This document shows, piece after piece, positions 1 to 36,922 of a stretch of DNA of 64,000 nucleotides. This DNA is from Desulfococcaceae bacterium (GTDB lineage: Bacteria; Desulfobacterota; Desulfobacteria; Desulfobacterales; Desulfococcaceae): assembly GCA_046541495.1 (NCBI GenBank), contig JBKHDE010000003.1, positions 513-64,512 of the forward strand. Reading direction: 5' to 3'. Position 1 is the stretch's first letter. The number at the start of each line of letters is the position of its first letter. Position numbers and translations under genes: made by a program. The notes beneath the pieces were generated by a model. It did no database searches and was not told the DNA's origin. It saw only the letters and a program-made list of their open reading frames with translations.

Positions 1-805
1 CGCCGATCTGGTGGATGACACACCCCCGCGCTATGACCTGGTCGCCCATCACCGGGATCATTACGTCATGAGCGGGGTCGGCGGAAAGATCGGGTTCGTG
101 GCCTCGGCCTTCGGGTGTACCCACCGCTGCTTCTTCTGTTCGGTCCCGGATATGACCGGGGGCCGGTATCTGACCCACTCCATCGATGCGGTGATTCGGG
201 ATATGGAGATGCTGGCCGACATCCCCCTGATCCGGCTGGTGGACGCCAACACCTTCGGGGACCCGGCGGTGGCCGAAACCCTGGCCCGACGGATTATCGA
301 GGCCGGGATGCAAAAGCCGCTGGTGGCCGATGTCCGCTCGGACACGGTGGTCCGTCGCCCGGACCTGTTCCGGCTCTGGAAGGAAGCCGGCCTGGCCACG
401 GCGGTGATCGGGTTCGAGGAGGTCACCGACGAGCGGCTGCGGGCCTACAATAAAAAAAATGATGTGGCGGTGAACATCCAGGCCATGAACATTTTAAAAG
501 AGCTGGGTATTCGCATTATCGGAGATTTTATCGTCTCCCCCGATTATACCGAAGCGGATTTCGATCGGCTGCAGGCGTTCGTGGAAGCACAGCCCATCGA
601 TCTGCCCATTCCCTCGATTCTGACCCCGGTGCCCGGCACCCCGCTTTATCGGCAGATGAAAGACCGAATCACCGTTCAGGATCTCGACTATTACACATTT
701 CTCAATGCGGTCGTCCCCACCCGGCTGCCCGAGAAGGTTTTTTACGAAACCTATTCCCGTTTACTGAAGCAGTGCCTGTCCCGGGCCGCACACGAAAAGA
801 ACTGA
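1..805 (+). CDS. radical SAM enzyme (5' end outside window)
   Basis: Frame is open from base 2 with no stop upstream of the GTG at 11. Fe-S motif CTHRCFFC (CxxxCxxC) followed by radical-SAM barrel-like sequence. Stop at 803-805. Confidence 0.8.
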   Translation, partial: ADLVDDTPPRYDLVAHHRDHYVMSGVGGKIGFVASAFGCTHRCFFCSVPDMTGGRYLTHSIDAVIRDMEMLADIPLIRLVDANTFGDPAVAETLARRIIEAGMQKPLVADVRSDTVVRRPDLFRLWKEAGLATAVIGFEEVTDERLRAYNKKNDVAVNIQAMNILKELGIRIIGDFIVSPDYTEADFDRLQAFVEAQPIDLPIPSILTPVPGTPLYRQMKDRITVQDLDYYTFLNAVVPTRLPEKVFYETYSRLLKQCLSRAAHEKN

Positions 806-818
806 GAGAAAATACGAA

Positions 819-1973
819 ATGACGGCGGTGTACATCAACGATGTATCGGCTTTCCTCCCCAATGGACCGGTCTCCAACGACGACATCGATCGGGTGCTGG
901 GGGAACTCCCCAATGTCGGGGCCAAGACCCGGCGAATCGTCCTCAAGAACAATAAAATCCGCACCCGATACTATGCGGTTGACCCGAAAACCGGCGCCCT
1001 GACCCATTCCAACGCCGAACTGGCGGCCGAGGCGGTTCGGCGACTCCATCCGGTCGCAAATTTCCAACCCGCGGATATCGAATGCCTCTGCTGCGGCACC
1101 GCCACCCCCGACCTGCTGCTGCCCGGCCACGGACTCATGGTTCTGGGCGAACTGGCGATTCCCGAATGCGATGTCATGACCGCCGCCGGCATCTGCATCT
1201 CCGGGATGACCGCCCTCAAGCACGGATACATGAATGTAGCCACCGGATCCAGCCGCAATGCGGTGGCCGTGGGCTCGGAACTGGCCTCCTCCCACACCCG
1301 GTCCGAATTCATGACGCCGCTGATGGACGCCGCCGAAGCCGAGGCCCTGGAAAAACGGCCGATCCATGCCTTTGACGCCGATTTTCTGCGGTGGATGCTC
1401 TCGGACGGGGCCGGCGCCGTCTACCTTTCCCCCGATCCAAATTCAGGAGGGATCGCCCTGCGAATCGACTGGATCGACCATATTTCCCTGGCCGGCCAAC
1501 TGGAAACCTGCATGTACGCCGGCGGCGTCAAGGAACCGGACGGAAAGGTCACCGGCTGGCGGAACCGGGAAAAAATCCCGGCGGAGGCCCGGCCCTGGCT
1601 GATGTCGATTCGGCAGGATATCAAGCTTCTGGACCGGGAGATCGTGGCCTCCATGGGACGGGTGCTCAAACGGGTGATCGACAAGCGCGGCCTGAAACCG
1701 AAGGCCGTCGATTGGTTTCTGCCCCACTACTCTTCGGCCTATTTCCGCCCCAAATTTTACGAGGAGATGGCCCGGATCGGGTTTGAAATTCCGGAAGAGA
1801 AATGGTTCACCAATCTATCGGAAAAGGGCAACACCGGCAGCGCCGCCATCTACATCATCCTGGCCGAGCTGTTCCATTCCGGCCGATTGACCCCCGGGGA
1901 GCGGCTGCTCTGTTTCATTCCCGAAAGCGGCCGCTTCGCCCACTGCTTCATGCATTTGACCGTGGTCGAGTGA
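819..1973 (+). CDS. FabH-like beta-ketoacyl-ACP synthase III family condensing enzyme/acyltransferase
   Basis: 384-aa ORF 13 nt after the radical SAM stop. Thiolase-fold KAS III pattern with candidate triad Cys (AAGICISGM), His (FLPHYSS), Asn (KGNTGSAA). Confidence 0.8.
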   Translation: MTAVYINDVSAFLPNGPVSNDDIDRVLGELPNVGAKTRRIVLKNNKIRTRYYAVDPKTGALTHSNAELAAEAVRRLHPVANFQPADIECLCCGTATPDLLLPGHGLMVLGELAIPECDVMTAAGICISGMTALKHGYMNVATGSSRNAVAVGSELASSHTRSEFMTPLMDAAEAEALEKRPIHAFDADFLRWMLSDGAGAVYLSPDPNSGGIALRIDWIDHISLAGQLETCMYAGGVKEPDGKVTGWRNREKIPAEARPWLMSIRQDIKLLDREIVASMGRVLKRVIDKRGLKPKAVDWFLPHYSSAYFRPKFYEEMARIGFEIPEEKWFTNLSEKGNTGSAAIYIILAELFHSGRLTPGERLLCFIPESGRFAHCFMHLTVVE

Positions 1974-1983
1974 TCGGTCCCGC

Positions 1984-3060
1984 TCAACCTTTCGCCAGGA
2001 CCACCCTTCCGTAGCCGCCGGCCCCGCCTAGTTTAAGGCACTGAATGCGGTCGGTTCCCAGAACCCGAGGTTCCAGAATCAGCTCGGGGCCTTCCGGCAG
2101 GGGGACCCCGCCGGCGGTGGAGGGGTAGATTCTTCCCTCTTGCAGACTCAGGGCGGCGACGGCGATGTCAAATCCCATCCCCACCGGCAGATTCCCGTAC
2201 AGATGGGAATAGACGGCCGCGGGTCCGGGAACCCACCGGCCGTATCCCGCCTCCCCGGAGGAGAGCCCGTCCGCGCCGATGAAGCAGATATCCTCTGATG
2301 AGACCGTCGGCAGCCGCCCGTGGCCGCTTCCGGTGGATACTTCGTGCACGACCCCGTATCGGGATGGGCGGTCGGTCTTTCCGGAGAGCAGAAAAAAGAC
2401 GCTTCCCTCGCCCACCGCCGCGGGAACCGGGCCTGAATTCGAATCCCGGTCTTCTGGAAATCGGCACTGCCGGTGAAAAGCGGTTATTCGGGCGAAATCA
2501 TCCACCCCGCCCACCAGGACCCTTTCCACCCGCCCCTCGGTCAACCAGTGGTCGGCCGTCAGAAAGGCCAGCGGAATCGACAGATCGAATTGATTGATGG
2601 ACAGATTGGGTCCCCGGGTCTTTAAAAAGGCGGCGATGTGGGCCCCCGCGGCATTATGGACCGAATTGGAAAACCGAATGGGGGAAAAGGACCGAATATC
2701 CCCCTCGGTGCAGAGTTCCTGAAAATCGAAGGTATTGCAGGTGGAACCATACCCGGTGGCCACGATGATCCCCAGGGATTCGGGAAGAGAATCGGCAATG
2801 CCGGCATCCGAAAGGGCCATTCGACATCCCAGAAGGGCCATTCGGGTGTGGTGATCGGTCCGACGCAGGGCCCGGCGGTCGACCATCCCCCCGAGCGCAG
2901 AGGTGTCGGCCGGCAGCATCGGCACTCGAACCTCTCCCTGAAGAGTGGCCATGGAAAAAAATTCGGCCCGGCCTCGTCCCTCGGCCAGAGCCGCCGCCAT
3001 ATCGGACAGCCCGCAGCCGAATCCGCCCACCACCCCGATGCCCTCGATACCGACCCTCAT
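1984..3060 (-). CDS. ketosynthase-like subunit lacking catalytic Cys/His/His (chain-length-factor-like partner of the adjacent KS)
   Basis: ATG at 3060-3058 overlaps the TGA of the upstream KS (ATGA). Starts MRVGIEGIGVVGG. In ungapped alignment to the neighbouring KS, INQFDLS replaces VTACSAG; the HGTGT and GHTLGAAG histidine motifs are absent. The longer track ORF (to 3237) is an Arg/Gly-rich extension inside the KS gene. Confidence 0.75.
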   Translation of the reverse strand: MRVGIEGIGVVGGFGCGLSDMAAALAEGRGRAEFFSMATLQGEVRVPMLPADTSALGGMVDRRALRRTDHHTRMALLGCRMALSDAGIADSLPESLGIIVATGYGSTCNTFDFQELCTEGDIRSFSPIRFSNSVHNAAGAHIAAFLKTRGPNLSINQFDLSIPLAFLTADHWLTEGRVERVLVGGVDDFARITAFHRQCRFPEDRDSNSGPVPAAVGEGSVFFLLSGKTDRPSRYGVVHEVSTGSGHGRLPTVSSEDICFIGADGLSSGEAGYGRWVPGPAAVYSHLYGNLPVGMGFDIAVAALSLQEGRIYPSTAGGVPLPEGPELILEPRVLGTDRIQCLKLGGAGGYGRVVLAKG

Positions 3061-4262
3061 TTTACCCCCTTTTCCGCCCCCAGTATAAGCGCCGCATTGT
3101 TGCCGCCGAAGGCCAGGGTTTCGGAAAGCGCCGCAGCGCCGCGGACCGGGGTGGTTCGGGAGACCGGAGACGCCGGCAGCTCCGGATCGGAGTGAGTGAA
3201 TCCGGCACTGGGCGGAATCCGGCCCCGCTCCAGGCATCCCAAGGTAAAAGCCGCCTCCACCGCTCCGGCCGCGCCCAGGGTATGACCGGTGAATCCCTTG
3301 GTGGAAAGAAAGGGAATTCCGGGAAACAGGGCATCAAAAAGCCGGGATTCGATCCGGTCGTTGTCGGGGGTGCCGGTGCCGTGGGCATTGATGAAGGCGA
3401 GGGCCGAGGGCGAAATTCCGCTCGATTCCAGGGCGTCCCGAACCGCCAAGTGAAGCCCCTTTCCCTCGGGATCGGGGGTGGTGAGGTGAAAGGCGTCGCC
3501 GGCGGTGCCGTAGCCCAGGATCCATCCCCTCGGCGTCGCGCCGCGCTCCTGAAGAACCGCCTCGGATTCCAGAATGAACAGGGCCGCCCCTTCCCCCAGA
3601 TTGAGCCCCTTCCGGTCCGCATCAAAGGGTTTGCAGGCGCTGCTGTCGCTGTTCATCAGGGAAATGAACCCGTTGTAGGTGATTTCGTAAAGCTCGTCGG
3701 CCCCGCCCGCCAGGACCAGATCGCAAAGCCCCATGCGAATCCAGGAGGCCGCCAGCCCAAGGGCGTCGGTGCCGGCCGAGCAGGCGGTGACCACCGTCTC
3801 CAGGGGGCCGCAGAGTTCAAATTCCCGGGCCAGCCCCACTGCCGGATTGGAGGCGGAAAATCGGTCCGCCGGGGTGGGATAATCGCTGTCGCAGGCGCCG
3901 GTTTTGCCGAACAGCTCCGGATTGCTCACCGAACCGGCCACATTGGAGCCGATGCAGACCCCCACCCGTTTCCGCTTTAAAATTCCGCGGTCCAGCCCGG
4001 CATCGGCACAGGCTTCATGAGCGGCGGTCAGGGCCAGCCGAACGGTGCGGGACCGGGGAGCGGACCGGAACCGGCCCGGAATCCAGAACCCCTCCGCCAC
4101 CTCGAAGACCGGATATCCCGGATCCGGGTCCGCGGGAAACCGCGAGGGCAGCACCGGAAAGCGCTCCCCCCGAAACAGAAAATCGAGGCAGGCATTCAGG
4201 GTCAGACCGGCCGAGCAGAGGCATCCGATGCCGGTGACCGCCACAGGCGCGGCCGGTTTCAT
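3057..4262 (-). CDS. beta-ketoacyl-ACP synthase (FabF/KS-alpha type)
   Basis: 401 aa with catalytic motifs VVTACSAGTDA (Cys), NAHGTGTPDND (His), GHTLGAAG (His). ATG at 4262 overlaps the ACP stop (ATGA). Confidence 0.9.
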   Translation of the reverse strand: MKPAAPVAVTGIGCLCSAGLTLNACLDFLFRGERFPVLPSRFPADPDPGYPVFEVAEGFWIPGRFRSAPRSRTVRLALTAAHEACADAGLDRGILKRKRVGVCIGSNVAGSVSNPELFGKTGACDSDYPTPADRFSASNPAVGLAREFELCGPLETVVTACSAGTDALGLAASWIRMGLCDLVLAGGADELYEITYNGFISLMNSDSSACKPFDADRKGLNLGEGAALFILESEAVLQERGATPRGWILGYGTAGDAFHLTTPDPEGKGLHLAVRDALESSGISPSALAFINAHGTGTPDNDRIESRLFDALFPGIPFLSTKGFTGHTLGAAGAVEAAFTLGCLERGRIPPSAGFTHSDPELPASPVSRTTPVRGAAALSETLAFGGNNAALILGAEKGVK

Positions 4263-4546
4263 GCAGCCCGATGCTTTTCGATGAATTCGGACAGGGTATT
4301 GATGGACTGGAGAACCTTTCGGCCTTCTTTCATGTCGCGGATGACCACGCCGAAATGGGCCTTGATCTGAAAAACCACTTCGACCGCATCAATGGAATCG
4401 AGGCCGAACTTGTCTCCGAAGAGCGGATCATCGTCTTCGATCTCCCAGGGGTTCACATCCACCAGATTGAGTTCCTGGATGAGCATGATTTTCAGAGACT
4501 GTTTTAGACCGGGGGGGGATAGTTTGGATTTGGCAAGCTGGTTCAT
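4259..4546 (-). CDS. acyl carrier protein
   Basis: 95-aa product from ATG 4546 (MNQLAKSK...) with phosphopantetheine site FGLDSIDAVEVV. The upstream part of the 145-aa track ORF is Arg-rich and overlaps the neighbouring gene. Confidence 0.85.
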   Translation of the reverse strand: MNQLAKSKLSPPGLKQSLKIMLIQELNLVDVNPWEIEDDDPLFGDKFGLDSIDAVEVVFQIKAHFGVVIRDMKEGRKVLQSINTLSEFIEKHRAA

Positions 4547-4613
4547 AGATAATGATCGTGAATTTAAGGTTGTGAAAGCATTCCGCTTCGGAAAAACAAA
4601 AGAATCATGAACA

Positions 4614-5639
4614 TCACCGGACCGCATCTTCCAGGTCCGTAAACAGCGCCGCTTCCCGGTCCGCGCAATCCCGAAGAATGTCGGCCAGTGCCGCATAGCT
4701 TTCGGTTTCCGAGGCCCGGGCTTTGCAGATGCGGGAGCCGATGACGGCGAAATCGCGCCAGCGGTCGCCGATCTCGGTCATTCGGTCGGAGAGTTCGGAA
4801 AGCTCGGGAAGGGCCAGAATCGGGGCGGCTTCCTGAAGAAAAGCGGCGTAGATAAACCGGAACCCGGCGCCGCCGGTGCCGATCTCCTCCTGCATGCGGA
4901 TGATCTGACCGAGATGGAGGGCGGCCCGGCGGTCCCCCAGTTTGGCGGGCCGGTTTTCGAGCTTTTTGGCCAGATACCGAATGCCCTTGGCGCCGATAAA
5001 AGGTCCGGGCACCCGGAGCATGGACCGGCAAACCTCTTTGATGCCTTTTTGCACCGCCCCGGCCAGATCCATCTCGTCGGCCCCGGGCACATGGGCCACA
5101 TGGTACATCCGGCCTTTGGGGGCCATGGATCCTCTGGCGAACCGGGCCTTGGCCAGGTCTTCGGCCGGGCAGTCCACCGGGTCGGGAAAAACCGGATCGC
5201 TGATGCGATAGCTGCCGTTGTTTTTGCCGAAGGCCACCAGGTTGTGCATGTTGAAATGGAACCGGTATCGGGGCGGAAAATAGCTGAGCCAGTAGGCCCC
5301 GGTGCGGCATCCCACCGGAATCCCCGCCTCCAGCATTCGGTCCAGGGCCGCCATGGCTTTGTCCGGACTTCTGAACTTTTGCCATTCCAGCCGAATCCCC
5401 AGCCGCTTGGTGGTTCGGCTCATGATTCCGCCGGTGGCGATCCGGTAGGCGGTGAGGGGCAGTTTATTGAGCCGGACAAATGGAAAATAGCCGAAAAACA
5501 GTCCGGAACCGATGCCGAACACCATGGCTTCGCTGATCTCCAGCCCGTGGTGAGATACCAGATTCGATAAAACACCGGTTTCGCAATGGGCCGACTGCCG
5601 GTGGTGAAAGGGAATTTCAATGGCGGTGCTGTCATTCAT
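4614..5639 (-). CDS. BtrH_N-like / DUF4872-like protein (putative ACP-dependent acyltransferase, cysteine-peptidase fold)
   Basis: N-terminus HHRQSAHCETGVLSNLVSHHGLEISEAMVFGIGSGLFFGYF matches my recollection of the butirosin BtrH N-terminal domain, with a conserved Cys. ATG 5639 (MNDSTAIE) overlaps the upstream gene end by 8 nt; ATG 5672 is an alternative start. Confidence 0.65.
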   Translation of the reverse strand: MNDSTAIEIPFHHRQSAHCETGVLSNLVSHHGLEISEAMVFGIGSGLFFGYFPFVRLNKLPLTAYRIATGGIMSRTTKRLGIRLEWQKFRSPDKAMAALDRMLEAGIPVGCRTGAYWLSYFPPRYRFHFNMHNLVAFGKNNGSYRISDPVFPDPVDCPAEDLAKARFARGSMAPKGRMYHVAHVPGADEMDLAGAVQKGIKEVCRSMLRVPGPFIGAKGIRYLAKKLENRPAKLGDRRAALHLGQIIRMQEEIGTGGAGFRFIYAAFLQEAAPILALPELSELSDRMTEIGDRWRDFAVIGSRICKARASETESYAALADILRDCADREAALFTDLEDAVR

Positions 5640-6051
5640 GGGGGTTGATTTCCGCTGTTTCCGGCACTTCATGAAGCTGGGCCACGGTGATGCCGAAAAT
5701 GCCGGCGTAGCGCGCTTTCAACTCGGCGGAGAGCCGCCGGAAGACCTTGGGTTTAAGATGTCGCCGGACCCGCCACCGGGGCAGGTCCGCATAGCTGGAT
5801 AGAAGTCCGATGTCCATCAGGTTCCGGGTCATGTGATAGGCCAGCGGGCTCCGCTTTCCGGACCTGATCAGTCGAATCTGCTCGCGAAGGTCCTCCTCGA
5901 TCACTTCCCAGGCCTGGTCGTTGGCCACGGTTTTGGGTTCCCATCCCCGGCTTTGGACCAGAACGTACCGGCCGTTTTCATCCACTGCGTAGGAAATTTC
6001 CCGGACGCCGTCGCTGAAACCCCGGTCTTGGGGTACCTCATCTTTCTTCAT
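5632..6051 (-). CDS. hypothetical protein (possible degenerate HTH at C-terminus)
   Basis: 139-aa ORF, first gene of the minus-strand operon. Coding-like composition. C-terminal LSAELKARYAGIFGITVAQLHEV is HTH-like. No family recognised. Confidence 0.6.
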   Translation of the reverse strand: MKKDEVPQDRGFSDGVREISYAVDENGRYVLVQSRGWEPKTVANDQAWEVIEEDLREQIRLIRSGKRSPLAYHMTRNLMDIGLLSSYADLPRWRVRRHLKPKVFRRLSAELKARYAGIFGITVAQLHEVPETAEINPHE

Positions 6052-6107
6052 GCGTTTCTTTTCGGCGGTGCCGTGCCGCCGGCTTTTTAGGTACGGCGGT
6101 TTTGGGG

Positions 6108-6136
6108 TTGACGGGTTCTTTTGAAAAATTTAAAAT
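6108..6136 (+). promoter_or_regulatory. sigma70-type promoter for the thioesterase/DAK2-DegV operon
   Basis: TTGACG (6108-6113), 17-nt spacer, TAAAAT (6131-6136). Confidence 0.4.
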
Positions 6137-6162
6137 ATCGCGAAAATTTGATTGAATGTCAA
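6134..6162 (-). promoter_or_regulatory. sigma70-type promoter for the hypothetical/BtrH/ACP/KS operon
   Basis: On the minus strand: TTGACA (6162-6157), 17-nt spacer, GATATT (6139-6134). The -10 boxes of the two divergent promoters overlap. Confidence 0.35.
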
Positions 6163-6275
6163 TCGTTTATGTTACACTTTCCGAGCGATCGCATCATCGG
6201 ATCGCTTATCCGATTGAATTTAAACCTATTCCGGCAACAGACGGCCGAACACGATATTCAAGGCGGCAACCGAAT

Positions 6276-6689
6276 ATGACAGCAGGCAGAAGCCATGAAG
6301 TGCAGCTGCGGGTTCCTTTTCACGATCTCGATCCCATGGAAGTGGTATGGCACGGGAATTATCTTAAATACTTCGATATCGCCCGCTTCGCCCTGTTCCG
6401 GGAAGGCGGCATCGATCTCTACCGCTACTCCCGAAAGCACGGCATCCTGTTTCCGGTCATCAAGACCGCCACCAAACACATCATCTCTCTGCGCTATGGG
6501 GAGGCGTTTCGGGTTCGGGCCACGGCCCGGGAGGCCGCCATCAAGATCGTCCTCGACTTCGAAATTCACCGAATCGCCGACGGTCAGACCTGCGCCAAAG
6601 GCCGGGGAGAACAGGTGGCGGTGAAACTCCCGGAGATGGAGACCCTTTACGAAGTCCCGGCGGACATCCGCCGGTGTCTGAACCTCTGA
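6276..6689 (+). CDS. hotdog-fold acyl-CoA/acyl-ACP thioesterase (4HBT/YbgC-like)
   Basis: HEVQLRVPFHDLDPMEVVWHGNYLKYFDIAR is the typical 4HBT N-terminal motif. ATG 6276 is preceded by GGCGG. The track start at 6156 would add 40 non-conserved-looking residues directly at the promoter. Confidence 0.8.
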   Translation: MTAGRSHEVQLRVPFHDLDPMEVVWHGNYLKYFDIARFALFREGGIDLYRYSRKHGILFPVIKTATKHIISLRYGEAFRVRATAREAAIKIVLDFEIHRIADGQTCAKGRGEQVAVKLPEMETLYEVPADIRRCLNL

Positions 6690-6691
6690 TC

Positions 6692-8425
6692 ATGGACGAA
6701 CCGATTCGAAACGGACTGGTGGCGGGCACAGAGCGGTTGACCGCCTGGGCCGATCTTCTGGACGGCATCAATGTCTTTCCGGTGGCGGACGGGGATACCG
6801 GCCGCAACCTGGTGGCCAGCCTGTCGCCCCTTCGCCGCATGACCGGTGATCCCGAAGAAACCGCCCGGCTTCTGCTCATGGCGGCCCGGGGCAATTCCGG
6901 AAACATCGCGGCCCGGTTTCTTTCGGAATTTATTTGCATGAACGGCAAGGGAGACCTGTTCCCCGCCGCCCAAAAGGGCCGGGATGCGGCCCGGGAGGCG
7001 GTGAAAGACCCCAAACCCGGCACCATGCTGACCCTCTTCGACGCCCTGGTGGAAGTGCTGCAAAAGGAGGCATCGGAACGTCGTCTATCGGCCACGGCGG
7101 TTATCGATCATCTCTCCGAAGCGGTCCTTCAAACCACGACCCTGCTGCCGGTGTTGGAATCGGCCGGGGTGGTGGATGCCGGCGCATTGGGAATGTTTCT
7201 GCTGTTCGAGGGATTTTTCGAATCCCTGGTCGGGGACGAATGGTTGTTTACGCCCCTGAACCGAAGATTCCCCAACCGGCTCCAAATCTCCCCCGATTAT
7301 CAGGCCCGGTCTCAGACCGGCCATTGCATCCAGGCACGGCTTCGACTGAACCACCGGACCGGCGATACCGACGAAAGCATCGCCGCCCTGGGAGACAGCG
7401 TGGTGGTCACCCCGGATCGGGATTCCATTCAGGTCCACTTTCATACCTCGGACCGAACCGCGGCCCGGTCTCGAATGGAAGCCCTGGGCCGGCTGACGGA
7501 CTGGTCCGAAGAGGCGTTGACGGATGATGCGGTCTCGGCTCCCCTGAACCCCGCCGCCGGTCCCATTCACCTGATGACGGACGCCGCCGGTTCCCTCACC
7601 CGGTCGAATGCCCGGCGCCTGGGAATGACGCTGCTGGACAGCTATCTTCTGGTGGGGGATAAAAGCCTTCCCGAAACCCATTATTCGCCGGAATCGGTCT
7701 ATGCGGCCATGCGCAGCGGGGTTCCGGTCTCCACCTCCCAGGCCTCGATCTTTGAACGAAGCCAGCATTACCAGAGCGTATTGGACCGCCACCATCGGGT
7801 TCTCTACCTGTGCGTGGGTTCGGTCTACACCGGAAATTATGAGGCGGCCGTCTCCTGGAAGGCGAAGCATGACCCGGGAAACCGGCTGACGGTTCTGGAT
7901 ACCGGTGCGGCCTCGGGCCGCCTGGCCGCCATGGTCCTGGCCACGGTTGGTTACGCGCAACAGACGGATGATCCCGAGGCGGTGATCCGATTTGCAAAAG
8001 CCATGGTCCCCCATTGCGAGGAATACCTGTTTCTGGACCGGCTTCATTATCTGGCAGCCGGCGGACGGCTTTCCAAAACCGGGGCTTTTTTCGGCGACAT
8101 GCTCCACCTGAAGCCGGTGATCACCCCCACCGCCCAGGGGGCCAAAAAGGTCGGCATGGTCCGGGACCGGAAGGCCCAGTTGGCGTTCGCCCTGGACAAG
8201 CTGGAACAGGCCCTGAGAAACGGCCCCCCCGCACTGGTTTTGCTGGAATATTCGGACAACCGGGAGTGGGTCGAGACGGAGGTTCAAGAAACCATCGGAC
8301 GCCACTGCCCCGGATCGGAGATTCGATCCATTCCGCTCTCCCTCACCTCCGGGGCCCACATGGGGCCGGGCACCTGGGGAATGGCTTTCTGCCGGGAACC
8401 GCACCCCGACACCGGACTCGCATAA
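6692..8425 (+). CDS. DAK2 (DhaL/FakA-N-like) domain fused to a DegV (FakB-like) fatty-acid-binding domain
   Basis: N-terminal INVFPVADGDTGRNL is the DhaL/FakA nucleotide-binding motif. The C-terminal ~290 aa carry DegV hallmarks (IHLMTDAAGSL, VSTSQAS, LHYLAAGGRLSK, LHLKPVI, SGAHMGPGTWGMAF). ATG 6692 lies 2 nt after the thioesterase stop. Confidence 0.85.
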   Translation: MDEPIRNGLVAGTERLTAWADLLDGINVFPVADGDTGRNLVASLSPLRRMTGDPEETARLLLMAARGNSGNIAARFLSEFICMNGKGDLFPAAQKGRDAAREAVKDPKPGTMLTLFDALVEVLQKEASERRLSATAVIDHLSEAVLQTTTLLPVLESAGVVDAGALGMFLLFEGFFESLVGDEWLFTPLNRRFPNRLQISPDYQARSQTGHCIQARLRLNHRTGDTDESIAALGDSVVVTPDRDSIQVHFHTSDRTAARSRMEALGRLTDWSEEALTDDAVSAPLNPAAGPIHLMTDAAGSLTRSNARRLGMTLLDSYLLVGDKSLPETHYSPESVYAAMRSGVPVSTSQASIFERSQHYQSVLDRHHRVLYLCVGSVYTGNYEAAVSWKAKHDPGNRLTVLDTGAASGRLAAMVLATVGYAQQTDDPEAVIRFAKAMVPHCEEYLFLDRLHYLAAGGRLSKTGAFFGDMLHLKPVITPTAQGAKKVGMVRDRKAQLAFALDKLEQALRNGPPALVLLEYSDNREWVETEVQETIGRHCPGSEIRSIPLSLTSGAHMGPGTWGMAFCREPHPDTGLA

Positions 8426-9781
8426 TCAAAGCTTCGATGACCCGCTCGTTTCCACGGGTTGATACAGTTCCGCCGCCTCCGATTCCATCCCCTCTATTGA
8501 TTTCAGCCTTCGGGCAATACGAATACGATCGGCGGGGTTGTGAATGTAATGCTTGGCATCCGCCGCCACCGCCTGAGCCTGGTACAGGAGGGCCTTCCGG
8601 TGCGCCTTTCGGGAAGCCGAATGAAGAAGGCTTTGAATCATCTGCAGCAGCCGGTGAATGATGACCGGGTCGCGCTTACCGTAGGCCCGGATTTCAGCAA
8701 AACAATAATAGATGAGGTCCTCGAAGGAAAGGGTTACAAAACTCACCCGGAGCCGATTCTCTTGATCATACAAGGCCTTGTGATCCGGCAACCGCATGCG
8801 AATCGCCAGCAGATCCGTCAGATAATCCAGTGCATTGACAGCCGTACCCGGATCGTTGATGCCCGGGCTGAGGGCCTTGACGGCGATTTCGACGATATGT
8901 TTGAATCCGTATAAATAGTTCATTTTCGGCAATTCATTCTTCTGAAAAATCAAACCGCCCGAGAGTGTTTTGAAGAGATTCGAATCGGCATCCGGTTCGG
9001 GCCCGCTGACCCTGATGAGAGGCGTGCCCTTGATCAGGTATCCTCCCAGGGGTTCCAGAATCTGCACCACCCGATCATCCTTCACCAGCGCTTTCAAAAA
9101 AAGGTCCTCCTGAATCTGCTGAAAATAACCGGTTTCCGGACTATTATAAACCTGCCAAGACCCCGATGTCGGCGTTACCGGATCTCCCCGATCAGACTGT
9201 TCTTGGATTTCCTGCGCCAAGACGGATCGGGTGATCTCGTAAATATCCTTTAGGAGGGTTTCGATTTGAACACTTCTCGAAATTGTGTGGATGAAGTAAA
9301 CAAACAGCGCCAGACAGCCCAGCCCCAGTAGAAATCCGACAAAGAGCGACAGCACCGATACCTGCCGGTCTCCGATGTTCGATCGTATATTGATTAAAAT
9401 CATCAGGAGATAGATGATGGTGCCCAGGTAAATACCGAGCACCACCTGGTTGGATTTTTGGGAAATAAGGCCGGGAAGGATTCGAGGGGAGTAATTGGAG
9501 GCGGTCTGGTTCAGCATCACCATGACCATGGAAAAACTGAACACCGTCAGCGAAATCATTCCTCCGGCCATGGTCGATAAAAAGCTTCGGGCGGAATCTT
9601 CATTTACATTAATCACATAGCGGAGGTAAGGATCGATCAACCGGCCGACCCGACTGGTATCCAGAAAAATCATCATCAGGGCCAGACCAAAAAGCGCGGC
9701 GGTGATCAGGGTCGGATAAAAGGCGATGCTCTGGATGATTTCCAGATAGAGGCGCCGGGCACGATTGACGATTTTTTTCAT
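8426..9781 (-). CDS. multi-pass membrane protein, DUF2254-like
   Basis: 451 aa with N-terminal hydrophobic helices and a soluble C-terminal half. Family name is from recollection. Its stop codon abuts the stop of the convergent DegV gene (8425/8426). Confidence 0.6.
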   Translation of the reverse strand: MKKIVNRARRLYLEIIQSIAFYPTLITAALFGLALMMIFLDTSRVGRLIDPYLRYVINVNEDSARSFLSTMAGGMISLTVFSFSMVMVMLNQTASNYSPRILPGLISQKSNQVVLGIYLGTIIYLLMILINIRSNIGDRQVSVLSLFVGFLLGLGCLALFVYFIHTISRSVQIETLLKDIYEITRSVLAQEIQEQSDRGDPVTPTSGSWQVYNSPETGYFQQIQEDLFLKALVKDDRVVQILEPLGGYLIKGTPLIRVSGPEPDADSNLFKTLSGGLIFQKNELPKMNYLYGFKHIVEIAVKALSPGINDPGTAVNALDYLTDLLAIRMRLPDHKALYDQENRLRVSFVTLSFEDLIYYCFAEIRAYGKRDPVIIHRLLQMIQSLLHSASRKAHRKALLYQAQAVAADAKHYIHNPADRIRIARRLKSIEGMESEAAELYQPVETSGSSKL

Positions 9782-9979
9782 GGCAATTGCTCATATGTGA
9801 AGTGGGATATTCATTTGTATTATATCCGCTTGAAACTCCTTTCACAATCCTTAATTTTATTAGGATGCGGTCTGCTTTAGAAATGGCTTGTGCATCCTCA
9901 CATTCTTCCGTAGGATGTCTTCCGGTTACGGCAACGGAATGACCGCGCGCTTTTCTCAACCAAATACAGGGAGCTGTCG

Positions 9980-10936
9980 ATGCCACGATTATCTTCGGTC
10001 GTTTCGGAACTGAGCCGAAAGACGGTGATTGTCCTCAATACCAAATCCGGCTTCTTTGAAGGAGTGAATTCAGAAAACCGTAAAACCGCCCTTCTCCAAA
10101 AATTGACGATCACTTTTCCGGAGGCGGAGATTCTGAAGCCCGACCCCGAGGACATCGGCCCAACGATCACACAAGCGGTGAATCAGGGCGTCAAACTGAT
10201 CATCGTCGGCGGCGGGGACGGCACCTTGAATGCGGCGGCCAACCTTTTGGCCGACACCCAAACCGCTCTGGCCGTCTTGCCGATGGGAACCTTCAATTAT
10301 TTTGCCCGGGATTTGAAGATGCCCCTCGATCCGGAGAGGGCCGTCGACGCGATCGCCGGCGGTTTCACCTTGCGGATGGATTTGGGACAAGTGGAAATGG
10401 GGGATTCCAAAAAGCAATTTTTTCTTCACAACGCTTCCCTCGGGGTTCATTCTCTGGCTGTGGAAAAACGGAACGAATACAAACGAAACCTCGGTATCAA
10501 CAAGGCCCTGGGCATCAGTTGGGCCCTTCTGGAGACCATCTGGAAGCCGCCCCGATTGGAAGGGCGTCTGGAAAGCCGCGAAGGGGCCGAATTCCTCCGT
10601 TCTCCGTTCGTTTTCATCGGAAACAACACCTACGACACCAACAGCTTGGCCTTTTTGAACCGGAAATCCTTGACCGACGGACGGCTGACCGTTTTATACT
10701 CGCCGCCGATTCCGTCCCGTTCGCTTCTGAAGCTGGCGATACTGACGCTGGTCAAACGCAACTTCCGCGAAATACCCGAACTCATCGATCTGCACACGGA
10801 GGAGGTCACCATTCGAACCCGAAAAAAACATCTGAAGCTGATTCTGGACGGAGAATTTATGAAAGTTCCTCCGCCGCTGACCTTTCGTATTCATCCCCAA
10901 AGTTTAACCAGTATCGTCCCCCAAGAGGCTGCATGA
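9980..10936 (+). CDS. diacylglycerol-kinase-catalytic-domain lipid kinase (YegS/BmrU type)
   Basis: 318 aa with the signature LIIVGGGDGTLNAAAN and downstream PMGTFNYFAR. Confidence 0.85.
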   Translation: MPRLSSVVSELSRKTVIVLNTKSGFFEGVNSENRKTALLQKLTITFPEAEILKPDPEDIGPTITQAVNQGVKLIIVGGGDGTLNAAANLLADTQTALAVLPMGTFNYFARDLKMPLDPERAVDAIAGGFTLRMDLGQVEMGDSKKQFFLHNASLGVHSLAVEKRNEYKRNLGINKALGISWALLETIWKPPRLEGRLESREGAEFLRSPFVFIGNNTYDTNSLAFLNRKSLTDGRLTVLYSPPIPSRSLLKLAILTLVKRNFREIPELIDLHTEEVTIRTRKKHLKLILDGEFMKVPPPLTFRIHPQSLTSIVPQEAA

Positions 10937-11781
10937 CCCGACTGGCCCATGTGTCGGATCTCCATTTCGGTACGGTCAAACCGGTATTGGCCGCCGGATT
11001 GCTGGACAGCCTGAACCGGCTCCAACCGGATCTGGTGGTGGTGAGCGGCGATCTCACTCAACGGGCGCGAAGCCGCCAATATCGGGCCGCCCGGGAGTAT
11101 CTGGACAAAATTCCTTTCCCCAAAATCGTGGTGCCGGGAAATCATGACGTGCCCCTTTACCATGTCTACAACCGATTTTTCCACCCGTTGAGAAATTATA
11201 TGCGTTACATCACCACCGACCTGGCCCCGATGTATCAGGACGACAAGGTCGCGGTGCTGGGCATCAACACGGCCCGGTCTTTCACCCGCAAGGACGGTCG
11301 GGTATCCGTTTCACAGATCCGCCTGATTTACCAGCGCTTCTGCGAACTTCCCCCGGATGTATTTCGAGTTCTGGTCACCCACCATCCCTTCCTGTCGCCT
11401 CCGGGACGCCCCAAGCGGGTGGTCGGCAGGGCGGAAAGGGCCCTTCAATATTTGGAAAAATGCCGATTGGGCCTGGTCCTCTCCGGCCACTATCATATGA
11501 GTTACGCCGACGGGTCTCATGCGGCCTATCGGGCGCTTCAGCGTTCGGTCCTGGTGGTTCAGGCCGGCACCGCCACCTCCCGACGGGTTCGAAAAGAACG
11601 GAACGCCTTTAATTTCATTCAAAGAACCGAGGGGAAAGTGGTGTTGGATGTGCATATGTGGGACGGCGGCGCGTTTGCACCGGTTCGGCGTGAAGTCTTT
11701 CAACGCAACGGCCGCAAGCGATGGGAAAAACGAGAAAATACAGCAATTCCCCCCGGCTTGCGACACACAGGAGACACTTGA
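10933..11781 (+). CDS. calcineurin-like metallophosphoesterase
   Basis: Starts MTRLAHVSDLHFG (ATG 10933 overlapping the kinase TGA as ATGA). Motifs SGDLTQR, VPGNHD, VTHHP, SGHYH. Confidence 0.85.
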   Translation: MTRLAHVSDLHFGTVKPVLAAGLLDSLNRLQPDLVVVSGDLTQRARSRQYRAAREYLDKIPFPKIVVPGNHDVPLYHVYNRFFHPLRNYMRYITTDLAPMYQDDKVAVLGINTARSFTRKDGRVSVSQIRLIYQRFCELPPDVFRVLVTHHPFLSPPGRPKRVVGRAERALQYLEKCRLGLVLSGHYHMSYADGSHAAYRALQRSVLVVQAGTATSRRVRKERNAFNFIQRTEGKVVLDVHMWDGGAFAPVRREVFQRNGRKRWEKRENTAIPPGLRHTGDT

Positions 11782-11785
11782 TTTC

Positions 11786-12124
11786 ATGAAAAGGGTTGTC
11801 AAAGCACTGGGAATTCCGTTTTTGATGGTATCGGCTTTGGGGGTTTTATCGGGGTGTTATTCCACCGGTCGGACCATCGGGGAGTCCCTGCGAAAGGTGG
11901 AAGCGAAAATCGATCGGTTTCAGGAAGGATACGAAGACGGCCGGTACGGCTATTTCGAGGGCCCCTCCCCTTTCGATATTCTCGAGGAACCGGAACCCCA
12001 CTTGAGATCAGAGCCGATGCCTGGTACACTCGGCATCGAGCAGCCGGTGGCGCCTCCGATTCCCGAACCCCCGGAAAATGAAATCGAAGAACCGATCGTG
12101 CCGGATATTCCGAGAGAACCATGA
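11786..12124 (+). CDS. small lipoprotein, Pro/Glu-rich C-terminus
   Basis: MKRVVKALGIPFLMVSALGVLSGC has a signal peptide plus lipobox (LSGC). Its stop overlaps the next ATG (ATGA). Confidence 0.7.
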   Translation: MKRVVKALGIPFLMVSALGVLSGCYSTGRTIGESLRKVEAKIDRFQEGYEDGRYGYFEGPSPFDILEEPEPHLRSEPMPGTLGIEQPVAPPIPEPPENEIEEPIVPDIPREP

Positions 12125-13152
12125 CCGCCTACTTCATTCGCCGTTTTCTGTTGATCATACCGACTTTTATAGGGATCACCATTATGGTGTTCACCATCAC
12201 CCGGTTTGTGCCCGGCGGGCCCATTGAACGGATCATTCTGCAGGCCCAGCAGATGCAGGACACTATGGGGGCCGGTCCTTCCGGAATGGCGGGCGATGAA
12301 CGATCGCAGCCGCTCTCGGAAAGCCAGATTCAGCAGCTGAAGGAATATTACGGCTTCGACAAGCCGGTTCTGCTGAGCTATGTGGAGTGGCTGGGCAAGG
12401 TGCTGACCGGGGATCTGGGCACCTCCACCCGGTATTACGATCCGGTCTGGGACATGATCAAAAGCCGCATCCCCATCTCCCTCTATTTCGGCATACTGAC
12501 CATGATCCTGACCTATGGGGTGTGCATCCCCCTGGGGCTGGCCAAGGCGATTCGGCACAAGAGCGCCTTCGACAACGTCAGCTCGGTGGTCGTCTTCATC
12601 GGGTATGCCATTCCCGGATGGGTGGCCGGGGTGCTGATGCTGATGCTGTTCTCTTCCCGGTGGGAAATTTTTCCACTGGGCGGGCTCACCAGCGACATGT
12701 TTTTCGAATTCTCGGTTTGGGAAAAAGTGGCCGACATCGCCTGGCACACGGTCCTGCCGCTGACCGCTTATATGATCGGCTCTTTCACCGTCATGACCTT
12801 TCTCATGAAAAACACCGTCATGGACAATCTCGCATCGGATTACGTGCGCACCGCCATCGCCAAAGGGCTCCCGTTTAAAAAGGCGGTTTTCAACCATGCC
12901 CTGCGAAACAGCCTGATCCCCATCGCCACCCACTTCGGCAATAATATCTCCATCATTCTGACCGGGTCCTTTCTGATTGAAAAGGTGTTCAATATCAACG
13001 GCATGGGGCTTCTCGGCTATGAATCGATTCTGGATCGGGATTATCCGGTGGTGATGGGAATTCTGGTGATTTCTTCTCTGCTGTTGATGATCGGAAACAT
13101 TCTGTCGGATATCTGTGTGGCTTTCGTCGATCCGAGGGTACAATTCAAATGA
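12121..13152 (+). CDS. ABC peptide-type importer permease (YejB-like)
   Basis: MTAYFIRRFLLIIPTFIGITIMVFTITRFVPGGP resembles DppB/YejB N-termini. Multi-TM. Confidence 0.9.
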   Translation: MTAYFIRRFLLIIPTFIGITIMVFTITRFVPGGPIERIILQAQQMQDTMGAGPSGMAGDERSQPLSESQIQQLKEYYGFDKPVLLSYVEWLGKVLTGDLGTSTRYYDPVWDMIKSRIPISLYFGILTMILTYGVCIPLGLAKAIRHKSAFDNVSSVVVFIGYAIPGWVAGVLMLMLFSSRWEIFPLGGLTSDMFFEFSVWEKVADIAWHTVLPLTAYMIGSFTVMTFLMKNTVMDNLASDYVRTAIAKGLPFKKAVFNHALRNSLIPIATHFGNNISIILTGSFLIEKVFNINGMGLLGYESILDRDYPVVMGILVISSLLLMIGNILSDICVAFVDPRVQFK

Positions 13153-14204
13153 AACCGTTTCAAAATATGAACCCGCTCACCCTGCGTAAATTGCGCCGGT
13201 TCAAATCGATCCGCCGAGGGTATTACTCATTTCTTATTTTTGCCTTGTTGCTCCTGATCTCCCTATCTGCGGAACTGCTGGTCAACAGCCGAGCTTTGAT
13301 CGTTCATTACAACGGCGAGTATTTTTTCCCCACCTATGGAGACATGATACCGGGGACCGTTTTCGGCCTTGATTATGCCTATGAAACCAACTACCGTCAG
13401 CTCAAGGAGAAGTTTAGATCCGAAGGCGAAGACGACTGGGTGCTGCTGCCGCCGGTGCCCTACAATGCCTATGAAAACGATCTTCAAGAAAATGCCTGGC
13501 CCCCCTTTCCGCCTTCTTTTGAAGATCGTCACTATCTGGGCACCGATGTCGTAGGCCGGGATGTCGTGGCCCGCCTGGTCTACGGATTTCGCATCGCCAT
13601 CTTTTTTTCCCTGGGCCTGCTGTTGGCCAACTACACCATCGGGGTGTCCATCGGCTGTTCCATGGGATATCTGGGCGGAAAATTCGATCTGTTCTTTCAA
13701 CGGATCATCGAAATCTGGTCCAATGTGCCCTTTTTGTATGTCATCATTATCATCTCCTCCATCGTGGTGCCCAATTTCTGGCTTCTGATCCTGATCATGG
13801 CCTTTTTCGGCTGGATCAACATCACCTGGACCATGCGGACGATCACCTACAAGGAAAAGGCCCGGGAATACGCCCTGGCTGCCAAGGCCCTGGGCGCCTC
13901 CGATATGCGGGTGATTTTTAATCACATCATTCCCAATACGGTGGCCATTATCGTCACCTTCGCGCCGTTTTCGGTATCCAGCGGCATCGTGGCGCTCACC
14001 TCCCTCGATTATCTCGGATTCGGCCTGCCCCCGCCCACCCCGAGCTGGGGGGAACTTCTTCAGCAAGGATGGGCCAACATGTGGGCCTGGTGGATCGCCG
14101 GCTCGGTCATCCTGGCCATGATCGTCACCCTGCTGACGGTGACCTTCATCGGCGAGGCGGTCCGGGAAGCCTTCGATCCCAAACTGCACACCGTCTATGA
14201 ATAA
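13149..14204 (+). CDS. ABC peptide-type importer permease (YejE-like)
   Basis: 351 aa, DppC/YejE-like, with a long periplasmic loop after TM1. ATGA overlap with the upstream permease. Confidence 0.9.
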   Translation: MKPFQNMNPLTLRKLRRFKSIRRGYYSFLIFALLLLISLSAELLVNSRALIVHYNGEYFFPTYGDMIPGTVFGLDYAYETNYRQLKEKFRSEGEDDWVLLPPVPYNAYENDLQENAWPPFPPSFEDRHYLGTDVVGRDVVARLVYGFRIAIFFSLGLLLANYTIGVSIGCSMGYLGGKFDLFFQRIIEIWSNVPFLYVIIIISSIVVPNFWLLILIMAFFGWINITWTMRTITYKEKAREYALAAKALGASDMRVIFNHIIPNTVAIIVTFAPFSVSSGIVALTSLDYLGFGLPPPTPSWGELLQQGWANMWAWWIAGSVILAMIVTLLTVTFIGEAVREAFDPKLHTVYE

Positions 14205-14303
14205 GCGGTATGAAAACCCAAAAATCCTGCTTATATTGTTGACTGCAACTTCTTGGGTTGAAATTGAAATCCGTGAAACCGGCATCATCAGAAAGGATGG
14301 ATC

Positions 14304-18237: not shown

Positions 18238-18256
18238 GGGAGATTAAACAGCGGTA

Positions 18257-19372
18257 ATGGGAGCAGACACACCCGACAAATCGAAGCACCCCTTTTATCC
18301 CTTTGCCGTTCGAGTTCTGATCACGGTGGGGATCAGCGGAACCTTCTTGTTGGCGACCCTCTTGATCTGGCGATCCACCACCCTTCTGCTTCTGATTTTC
18401 GCCGGATTTCTACTCAGCATTATTCTTCGGTGGCTGCAAGATCAGATCAGCCGATATACCCGTATTCCCCGCGGTCTGGCACTGGTAATATCCCTGATCC
18501 TTATTTTCTTGTTGGTCGGTCTGTTCAGTATGTATTTCGGCCCGATTTTGAAACAGCAGGTGGTCGATTTCTATCGCCGAATACCCGAATACCTCTCGGA
18601 TTTAAAATTCTATCTGAAACAATTCAGCTGGGGCAAAGCGGTTCTCGAACAGGCCGAGAAACCGGAAACGCTGATCAGCGCTGAGAACCTGCAGGAGACC
18701 GAACTGCTGAGCCGGGTCATCGGGGTTTTTTCCACCACCTTCGGCGCCGTCACCGGCGTATTGTTCATTCTGGTCATCGGCGTCTACCTGGCCGCCCAAC
18801 CGGATATCTATCTGAATGGTATTCTTCGCCTGATTCCGCTAAACAGTCGTCCCAGAGCGCTTGAGGTTTCTCACAACCTGTCCACCGCTATTCGCGGATG
18901 GCTCTTGGGCCAGCTGTTTTCAATGTCGATTCTGGGCACCATCGTCGGTTCGGGATTATGGCTGTTGGGTCTTCCCAATGCCCTGGCGTTGGGGCTGTTC
19001 GCCGCCTTGATGACCTTTATTCCCAACTTAGGCCCTGTTCTGGCCTTTATTCCCGCGATTCTGGTCGCCTTGTCTCAAGGGTTGTGGACAGCCTTTTATG
19101 TCAGCCTTTTTTATGTGTTCGTTCAAAATGTGGAGGGGTATTTTCTCACCCCCAAGATCCAGGAGAAAATTATTTCCGTGCCGGCGGTGCTTATTCTATC
19201 GGTGCAGATTCTTCTGTTCAACATCATCGGATTTCTGGGGATTCTTCTGGCCATGCCCTTGCTGGCCTGCACAATGGTGCTGATTCAGATGCTTTATGTT
19301 GAAGACGTTCTGGGGGATCGATTGGATACACCCGTGATAGATGAGCAGATCGGGCATTCTCATTCCGAGTGA
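18257..19372 (+). CDS. AI-2E family (PerM/UPF0118) transporter
   Basis: 371-aa multi-TM protein with a typical FIPNLGPVLAFIPAILVAL segment. Confidence 0.8.
   Translation: MGADTPDKSKHPFYPFAVRVLITVGISGTFLLATLLIWRSTTLLLLIFAGFLLSIILRWLQDQISRYTRIPRGLALVISLILIFLLVGLFSMYFGPILKQQVVDFYRRIPEYLSDLKFYLKQFSWGKAVLEQAEKPETLISAENLQETELLSRVIGVFSTTFGAVTGVLFILVIGVYLAAQPDIYLNGILRLIPLNSRPRALEVSHNLSTAIRGWLLGQLFSMSILGTIVGSGLWLLGLPNALALGLFAALMTFIPNLGPVLAFIPAILVALSQGLWTAFYVSLFYVFVQNVEGYFLTPKIQEKIISVPAVLILSVQILLFNIIGFLGILLAMPLLACTMVLIQMLYVEDVLGDRLDTPVIDEQIGHSHSE

Positions 19373-35714: not shown

Positions 35715-36922
<1,208 letters not shown>

Follow-up and report, generated by a model that had tools for sequence, protein, structure and literature searches.

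We describe a gene cluster at the start of a 64,000-nucleotide stretch of DNA (the window) from a Desulfococcaceae bacterium (contig JBKHDE010000003.1) that is probably a dialkylresorcinol (dar) cluster of the flexirubin or arcuflavin kind, in which the aromatase DarA is missing and a gene for a B12-binding radical S-adenosylmethionine (rSAM) enzyme stands in the darA slot. We hold this explanation as a whole, including the mechanism proposed below, with good confidence. Sequence and synteny identify the DarB, DarG and DarH families, a ketosynthase (KS) with a partner lacking the catalytic triad, an acyl carrier protein (ACP), the rSAM gene in the darA slot and the lack of DarA (Table 1). Because DarB, DarH and DarG match NCBIfam models and the layout follows published dar clusters, the cluster type is already known; the novel part is a widespread DarA-less Desulfobacterales variant with the rSAM gene in the aromatase slot, together with its association with a module containing a single-chain fatty acid kinase. 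A preliminary description of this DNA, made from its letters alone, had proposed an unrecognised type of cluster resembling fatty acid synthase (FAS) or polyketide synthase (PKS) systems, and had itself set a known cluster type against that proposal. Its reading as a specialised acyl pathway stands, its claim of a new cluster type does not, and the missing DarA with the rSAM gene in its place had been overlooked.

Three genes score above curated NCBIfam cut-offs, namely those for the DarB family, DarH and DarG. The ketosynthase-cyclase DarB reaches 524.8 bits against NF005293 (cut-off 450); against the narrower "exception" model NF053539 it scores 435.8 (cut-off 550), but the DarB of a canonical darABC operon also falls short, at 501. 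The crystal structure of StlD (5gk0) matches it over its full length (E 2.7e-112) with the nucleophilic Cys kept, and it shares 47% identity with DarB from a canonical Burkholderia darABC operon. C126, H303 and N338 are near-invariant among 84 DarBs and are conserved in loci with DarA (DarA-type) and with the rSAM gene (rSAM-type). Homologues of at least 62% identity come from metagenome-assembled genomes (MAGs) of Desulfobacterales or other Thermodesulfobacteriota. Enzymes of this family condense a beta-ketoacyl thioester head-to-head with a 2-enoyl thioester to give a carboxy-cyclohexanedione (PMC6836626). The gene first read as a separate beta-ketoacyl-ACP synthase III (KAS III) is this condensing and cyclising StlD/DarB enzyme and not a starter KS.

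DarH scores 461 bits against NF053550 (cut-off 300), with the Pfam domains BtrH_N (165.6 bits) and DUF4872 (188.2 bits). Its His18-Cys19-Glu20, His128 and His132 are invariant among 14 orthologues, which fits a BtrH-like acyl-ACP transferase; no relative in the PDB was found by sequence. DarG reaches 148.8 bits against NF053536 (cut-off 70). Four of its 15 orthologues weakly match HTH_26, a Cro/C1-type helix-turn-helix (best E 1.2e-5), and the C-terminal half of the protein may, by these matches, be helix-turn-helix-like. A profile search of DarG against the PDB gave nothing meaningful, and its single-sequence AlphaFold model, with a predicted local distance difference test (pLDDT) score of 43, is unusable. 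In the rSAM-type locus L107 (our handles for loci begin with L and those for proteins with P), DarG is adjoined by a 615-aa fusion of FMN_red/Flavodoxin_2 and SCP2 (sterol-carrier) domains (17005-18852), a candidate lipid-binding flavoprotein for the pathway. The "hypothetical" and BtrH-like genes are DarG and DarH, hallmark dar genes rather than foreign additions. In Azoarcus sp. BH72 the order is darA-B-D-E-F-I-C-J-K, where darD is hypothetical, darE BtrH-like, darF and darI ATP-binding cassette (ABC) genes, darC an ACP and darJ a KS (PMC3949708); Chitinophaga and Flavobacterium have darA, darB, darG (hypothetical), darH (BtrH_N), darI and darJ (ABC), darC (ACP), darD (KS) and darE (PMC12968099).

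No dar-specific curated model exists for the KS and the ACP. The KS matches ketoacyl-synt (102 bits) and Ketoacyl-synt_C (85 bits) in Pfam and retains the motifs TACSAG, HGTGT and GHTLGAAG; its best NCBIfam match, PRK09185, gives 274 bits (cut-off 407). The ACP carries the phosphopantetheine-attachment motif LDSID and scores 29.3 bits for PP-binding and 65.8 bits for PRK09184 (cut-off 70). In an alignment of the window copy and its orthologues, the KS partner lacks the whole Cys-His-His triad (Cys to Asp or Glu, one His to Asp, the other to Asn or a gap). The private ACP and the KS with a Cys-less partner are therefore as the preliminary description had them, and its inference of a specialised acyl chain holds: the dead KS partner, DarB, DarG and DarH rule out bulk fatty acid synthesis. 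A cispentacin-like AmcF/AmcG system was also rejected, as its scores stay under cut-off and the context of DarB is at odds with it.

PRK09185 and PRK09184 are aryl-polyene (APE) families, and the suggested relation to aryl-polyene systems holds. One could go further and read the whole cluster as an APE type II PKS, whose KS pair and ACP build a polyene while DarB is peripheral. The KS, dead partner, ACP and 4HBT thioesterase form an APE-like set, and dar genes do lie beside APE-type genes in L105 and L013. We nevertheless regard this as improbable. Both APE-family scores are under their cut-offs, and within the 64 kb there is no ketoreductase (KR), dehydratase (DH), aromatic starter enzyme (ammonia-lyase or ligase), LolA, MMPL exporter, glycosyltransferase or acyltransferase. 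Moreover, the KS/partner/ACP block accompanies DarB, DarG and DarH in DarA-type and rSAM-type loci alike, and the genes for the equivalent ACP and KS (darC/darD; darC/darJ in Azoarcus) have been placed in the dar sub-cluster (PMC3949708, PMC12968099). For a dar cluster no KR, DH or enoyl reductase of its own is needed, because FAS II supplies the reductive steps and DarB needs an unreduced beta-ketoacyl unit. In the StlCDE system, FAS II enzymes supply elongation, ketoreduction and dehydration (bioRxiv 10.1101/2022.10.20.513026). By this analysis the KS, its partner and the ACP can supply the beta-ketoacyl unit, and the enoyl partner would come from primary FAS. Of the two explanations offered earlier for the missing reductive genes, borrowing from primary FAS thus agrees with our results, and continuation of the cluster upstream does not, as it begins at the rSAM gene.

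The grouping of these genes is not due to chance, since a seven-gene core (rSAM, DarB, KS partner, KS, ACP, DarH and DarG) recurs in Desulfobacterales contigs, in more than 30 loci with DarBs 50-96% identical. Every related contig has a gene for a B12-binding rSAM protein of 430-438 aa immediately 5' of DarB and in the same orientation; alongside or a few kb off lie the KS partner, KS, ACP, DarH and DarG, often with an ABC ATPase/permease pair. Two look-ups begun from the rSAM gene likewise ended beside DarB. In L105, the rSAM-DarB pair sits among an aromatic ammonia-lyase, ACPs and a gene for a KS and chain-length factor.

The cluster starts at the rSAM gene, because the genes upstream of it in relatives are unrelated and a promoter-like site before it is conserved. 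The upstream DNA holds, in different lineages, toxin-antitoxin genes, NucS, an ABC transporter on the opposite strand or a PAS/sigma-54 activator. The site, resembling TTGCAA-17-TATAAT, lies about 40 nt before the rSAM start in L001, L002, L003, L007 and L008. A sigma-54 promoter was considered and rejected: no site like TGGCAC-N5-TTGC was found before the rSAM gene, and the conserved site is the sigma-70-like one. A PAS-domain sigma-54 enhancer-binding protein is encoded directly upstream of the rSAM gene in a 95%-identical relative (L008, 7082-8464) and near the cluster in L107 (19961-21299). The contig of the window itself begins about 12 nt before the rSAM start codon, as the ORF product P0122 begins with RRSIM-KILL, and a second assembly (L101) starts later still, inside the KS gene.

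The window holds the 3' part of the rSAM gene, and this fragment scores 57.7 bits for Pfam Radical_SAM. A full-length orthologue has a B12-binding domain (PF02310, 66.9 bits) and a Radical_SAM domain (PF04055, 58.6 bits). P0122 carries the motif CTHRCFFC (CxxxCxxC); C83 and the three Cys of this motif are the only invariant Cys among orthologues, and a SPASM or twitch motif is absent. HpnR is the best NCBIfam match, with 159.6 bits across almost the entire protein and a cut-off of 650; BchE scores 103 (cut-off 481). Matches in the PDB are all remote (TsrM, TokK, OxsB, AprD4 and 9ccb) and do not separate methylases from non-methylases. Identity with the hopanoid C-3 methylase HpnR was rejected on its score against the equivalog cut-off, as was an rSAM enzyme of ladderane-type lipids (TIGR04072, 52 bits against a cut-off of 360). 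Public labels of DarB-linked homologues (P0142, P0151, P0171 and others) read "hopanoid C-3 methylase" or "YgiQ family"; the HpnR score does not support the first. At least two other B12-binding rSAM families occur in or beside aryl-polyene or dar clusters of Thermodesulfobacteriota and Bacteroidales (L102 4673-5989; L104 14239-15729 and 15793-17052; L011 3655-4938; L064 7575-9011; L013 7275-8684). Their members are about 70% identical within a family and 20-26% to the DarB-linked enzyme and to each other; for the two families in neighbouring APE clusters, identity to the DarB-linked enzyme is 22-26%. A candidate role for them is the methionine-derived methylation of the aryl ring known for flexirubins.

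Neither tblastn (E<=1e-4) nor hidden Markov model (HMM) searches found a DarA-like ORF in the 64-kb window or within 10 kb on either side in 18 related loci. In two MAGs, one of Bacteroidales and one of Spirochaetia, DarB is directly preceded by a gene for a flavodoxin-like protein of about 300 aa (28% identical between the two, E 8e-48), for which neither Pfam nor NCBIfam has a model. A DarA-like protein with 41% identity is followed by DarB and an ACP on the Burkholderia pseudomallei plasmid NZ_CP009155, and this canonical darABC order indicates that the flavodoxin-like family is DarA.

We surveyed 101 DarB loci, 80 of them added from metagenomes, with ORFs classified by iterated HMMs and loci collapsed at 95% DarB identity. 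A DarA-like gene lies upstream of DarB in 43 loci (41 clusters at 95%) and an orthologue of the B12-rSAM gene in 41 (33 clusters). No locus or cluster has both. Six loci (6 clusters), three of them with under 400 nt of flank, have neither, and 11 (9 clusters) offer no usable flank. Among those with neither, L052, L056 and L078 have unrelated genes upstream of DarB and no third candidate enzyme; the rSAM gene near two DarA loci belongs to an unrelated family (about 80 bits). DarG, DarH, the ABC pair, the ACP, the KS and its partner travel with both types. In a neighbour-joining tree of DarB, the DarA-type is deep and paraphyletic and the rSAM-type derived, with a small DarA-type clade nested inside it. 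The closest cross-type pair is 74.5% identical, and rSAM-type DarBs go down to 50% among themselves. No column of the DarB alignment separates the two types. Together with the cross-type closeness, this suggests that DarB chemistry is unchanged and that the partner encoded upstream can be exchanged. That the slot holds strictly one gene or the other points to non-orthologous replacement of DarA by the rSAM enzyme, a possibility that we take seriously without yet regarding it as probable.

In the pathway that we propose, the KS/partner and private ACP would extend a fatty acyl primer by one malonate unit, and the beta-ketoacyl product would stay on the ACP, outside the reductive FAS cycle. DarB would join it to a 2-enoyl thioester from primary FAS II by Michael addition and Claisen reaction, giving a thioester-bound 2,5-dialkyl-carboxy-cyclohexanedione that a thioesterase or DarH would release. 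In known systems, DarA or StlC acts after DarB by decarboxylative aromatisation of the carboxy-cyclohexanedione (PMC6836626). The B12-rSAM enzyme would take over this job by O2-independent oxidative decarboxylation and aromatisation to a 2,5-dialkylresorcinol; C-methylation of the ring or chain would be the less favoured alternative. DarH, as a Cys/His acyl-ACP transferase like BtrH, would acylate the product, probably the resorcinol moiety of a flexirubin-like aryl-polyene ester. From an ACP-bound acid, the thioesterase and the single-chain fatty acid kinase (Fak) would produce an acyl-phosphate as donor in the acylation of lipid or pigment. Radical SAM reactions of the HemN type remove a hydrogen from the position beta to a carboxylate, and CO2 and one electron are lost. 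An rSAM aromatase is conceivable, because aromatising a carboxy-cyclohexanedione is formally an oxidative decarboxylation of this kind. The best reading of the genes is that they would make a 2,5-dialkyl-cyclohexanedione or resorcinol lipid, and the likeliest end product in these bacteria would be a flexirubin-like aryl-polyene/resorcinol ester. We propose tentatively that the rSAM enzyme is a new, O2-independent kind of aromatase and that abundant marine and sediment Desulfobacterales make flexirubin-like resorcinol/aryl-polyene lipids anaerobically, with the acyl partner activated by the single-chain Fak.

Several observations weigh against this proposal. The best family matches of the rSAM enzyme are C-methylases (HpnR, and TsrM and TokK in the PDB), and a B12 domain with a single Fe-S motif is the typical (class B) methylase layout. 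DarA is present in MAGs of presumed anaerobes (Bacteroidales and Spirochaetia), so oxygen avoidance or lifestyle alone does not force the swap. The search for DarA covered 64 kb of this genome and 10 kb on either side in relatives, and DarA may lie elsewhere in the genome. The window lacks aryl-polyene genes proper, and the ABC transporter pair (darI/darJ; darF/darI in Azoarcus) is absent beside the window cluster and in L001, L002 and L008, though most other relatives have it. For rSAM-type clusters no product has been described, and what the KS/partner, DarH, DarG, the thioesterase and Fak do in this scheme is inferred.

The first of these points suggest another reading of a dar-type cluster, in which the B12-rSAM protein is a cobalamin-dependent C-methyltransferase or other tailoring enzyme and the product a non-aromatic, methylated dialkyl-cyclohexanedione serving as a signal or membrane lipid. 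DarB alone does give cyclohexanediones, which are real products in Photorhabdus-type systems, and DarA-less DarB clusters with unknown products have been noted in cyanobacteria (PMC6836626). However, a tailoring methylase would be expected to occur with DarA at times, and co-occurrence was found in 0 of 84 classifiable loci; the rSAM gene also holds the exact darA position. The methylase-family scores all lie far under their cut-offs, and the non-methylases BchE and OxsB match too. We therefore consider the methylase reading rather unlikely and keep to the aromatase as our working proposal.

The thioesterase and the Dak2-DegV fusion next to the dar genes raise a separate question. The thioesterase scores 42 bits for 4HBT_2 and 52.7 bits for TIGR00051 (cut-off 68.7). 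The fusion matches DegV (144.2 bits), Dak2 (55.1 bits) and FakA-like_M (33 bits) in Pfam, and FakA_N and FakB/DegV chains in the PDB. Its DGDTG, GHC and HFH motifs are the Asp38/Asp40/Thr41 and Cys-His-His triad positions described in PMC9136124. It forms a single chain of 577 aa in which the DegV domain (residues 298-574 of a 583-aa ORF with a GTG start) replaces FakA_C, and it scores far from the equivalogs FakA (NF038248, 77 against 975) and FakB1 (52 against 350). These features suggest a single-chain protein resembling fatty acid kinase. FakA_N+L acts on FakB without FakA_C, with roughly ten-fold weaker binding (apparent Km 0.09 vs 0.99 µM; PMC9136124), so fusion is a plausible way to dispense with the docking domain. 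The fusion is 100% identical to a protein in a Thermodesulfobacteriota MAG.

This pair might be a general fatty-acid activation module outside the dar pathway, placed here fortuitously or by loose linkage. None of the 80 metagenome DarB loci has it, nor do relatives of the L003/L017 type, so that it falls outside the conserved core. The fusion belongs to a very large family in Thermodesulfobacteriota (5353 matches at E<=1e-20), and Syntrophales and other contigs (L102/L103 and L104) carry the pair in the absence of DarB. Yet those DarB-less pairs lie inside aryl-polyene or flexirubin-type clusters, not in housekeeping contexts; between them, L102/L103 and L104 hold an aromatic ammonia-lyase, AMP-ligase, KR, LolA, KS, family 2 glycosyltransferase (GT2), MMPL-methyltransferase, lipid A-type acyltransferase and other B12-rSAMs. 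The pair also stands beside dar genes in four other, differently arranged lineages (L002, L010, L015/16 and L019), and in L015/16 the dar genes run directly into thioesterase, Fak, GT2 and acyltransferase genes. The thioesterase is always paired with a Dak2-DegV gene except in the Bacteroidales dar cluster L013, where a homologue stands alone. We consider this reading rather unlikely. The pair is an accessory module shared with DarB-less aryl-polyene clusters, with which the preliminary description had not associated Dak2-DegV, and its likeliest role would be to convert ACP-released acid into acyl-phosphate for pigment or lipid acylation.

Dialkylresorcinols and flexirubin-type pigments are known from aerobes or facultative bacteria, in which they are chemotaxonomic markers, antioxidants and signals. 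We found no paper on a link between DarB and radical SAM enzymes, on dialkylresorcinols in anaerobes or Desulfobacterota, or on Fak/DegV in aryl-polyene clusters. The cluster offers a clean, testable case of non-orthologous replacement, with rSAM and DarA mutually exclusive and DarB the same in both versions, and a reaction new to cobalamin-dependent radical SAM enzymes might be established from it. Resorcinol or cyclohexanedione lipids that have so far gone unrecognised are predicted for anoxic sediments and could be of use as biomarkers, and a fused fatty acid kinase emerges as a candidate for acyl activation during the assembly of pigment lipids. For annotation, the names "KAS III", "hopanoid C-3 methylase" and "DegV family protein" are best avoided for these genes.

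The ORF map and Pfam bear out the nine genes of the preliminary description, with their strands, order and three units: rSAM and DarB on the plus strand, DarG to the KS partner on the minus strand, and the thioesterase and fusion on the plus strand (Table 1). Positions are window coordinates; the contig holds about 512 nt before the window start. For the KS partner, ACP, DarH, thioesterase and fusion, the mechanical ORFs began too early and the starts were trimmed to the shorter forms set by relatives. The rSAM-to-DarB gap is 13 nt, and the minus-strand genes are mostly joined by overlaps of 4-8 nt, including 4-nt ATGA overlaps; that between the KS and its partner is 4 nt. The divergent intergenic region holds a promoter-like site on each strand, TTGACG-17-TAAAAT at 6108-6136 (plus) and TTGACA-17-GATATT at 6162-6134 (minus), each with 10 of 12 consensus positions and identified by consensus match only.

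Table 1. Genes and intergenic region of the rSAM-type dar cluster in the window.
Feature	Position	Strand	Basis or remark
B12-binding radical SAM gene, 3' two-thirds	1..805	+	full product P0122 = 438 aa
DarB (StlD/DarB-family ketosynthase-cyclase; "KAS III")	819..1973	+	NF005293, StlD structure
KS-like partner (chain-length-factor-like)	1984..3060	-	only weak ketoacyl-synt N-terminal matches
FabF-type KS, DarD/DarJ counterpart	3057..4262	-	ketoacyl-synt + Ketoacyl-synt_C
Dedicated ACP (DarC-like)	4259..4546	-	PP-binding, LDSID motif
DarH (BtrH_N + DUF4872), BtrH-related acyltransferase	4614..5639	-	NF053550
DarG-family protein, 139 aa	5632..6051	-	NF053536; no Pfam match for window copy
Divergent intergenic region, 224 nt	6052..6275		one promoter-like site per strand
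4HBT_2 hotdog thioesterase (YbgC/FadM-like)	6276..6689	+	4HBT_2 42 bits
Dak2 + FakA-like_M + DegV fusion	6692..8425	+	Pfam domains

The G+C content is 0.60-0.64 in the dar region (window 1-8000) and 0.53-0.56 in 8001-16000; this and the patchy neighbourhoods in relatives are compatible with a cluster that moves as a unit. Downstream of the fusion (8426-11781) lie genes for a DUF2254 membrane protein, a DAGK_cat lipid kinase-like protein and a metallophosphoesterase, which adjoin Dak2-DegV also in L002 and L101. Elsewhere in the window, two minus-strand EF-Tu genes (35715-36908 and 50603-51796) encode 100% identical proteins of 397 aa and flank rpoB (42504-46706) and rpoC (38031-42488). Genes for tRNAs (Thr, Gly, Tyr, Thr) cluster at 51.9-52.5 kb, and tRNA-Trp lies at 50.3 kb; the whole is a usual tufA/tufB arrangement. 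Defence-like genes on the minus strand (58232-63943) encode an SNF2-family helicase (929 aa), a Schlafen AlbA_2/HATPase_c_4 protein (385 aa) and an AAA_21 (AbiEii-like) ATPase (599 aa); G+C falls to 0.45 at 62-64 kb, which suggests, together with these genes, a mobile or defence island.

Among known systems, the flexirubin clusters of Chitinophaga pinensis and Flavobacterium johnsoniae and the arcuflavin cluster of Azoarcus sp. BH72 also have DarB, a small DarG-type protein, a BtrH-like DarH, an ACP and a FabF-type KS. The order rSAM-DarB-DarG-DarH-ACP-ABC-ABC in L015/L016 mirrors darA-B-G-H-I-J-C of Chitinophaga. A triad-less partner is likewise seen beside the KS in the surveyed DarA-type metagenome loci; in Azoarcus, the KS is followed by darK, a "hypothetical" gene. 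In contrast to these clusters, the window has a B12-rSAM gene instead of DarA, no adjacent ABC transporter, and an added thioesterase and single-chain fatty acid kinase, and its host belongs to an anaerobic Desulfobacterales lineage rather than to Bacteroidota or Betaproteobacteria. The minimal darABC operons of Pseudomonas aurantiaca/chlororaphis and the Burkholderia plasmid NZ_CP009155, and stlCDE of Photorhabdus, share DarB/StlD with its catalytic Cys, His and Asn, a private ACP and reduction borrowed from FAS II. Unlike the window, they carry the flavodoxin-like aromatase DarA/StlC directly upstream and have no KS pair, DarG/DarH or rSAM gene.

The accessory parts compare in a similar way. 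Aryl-polyene type II PKS clusters share with the window a KS with a catalytically dead partner, a small ACP and a hotdog thioesterase, and the best scores of the KS and ACP go to their families, though below the cut-offs. The window lacks their KR/DH, starter enzymes, LolA/MMPL export and acyl- and glycosyltransferases, whereas its DarB, DarG and DarH are not components of such clusters. FakA/FakB of Firmicutes have the same Dak2 ATP-binding domain with DGDTG, middle-domain Cys...His-x-His triad and DegV/FakB fatty-acid-binding fold; here, however, kinase and binding protein are fused, DegV replaces the FakB-docking FakA_C, and the protein is paired with a thioesterase. With the class B radical SAM enzymes HpnR, BchE, TsrM, TokK and OxsB, the enzyme in the darA slot has in common an N-terminal B12-binding domain, one CxxxCxxC cluster and an expected lipid-like or ring substrate. 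It differs from HpnR/BchE-type enzymes in lying far under every family cut-off and in forming its own clade, tied to DarB.

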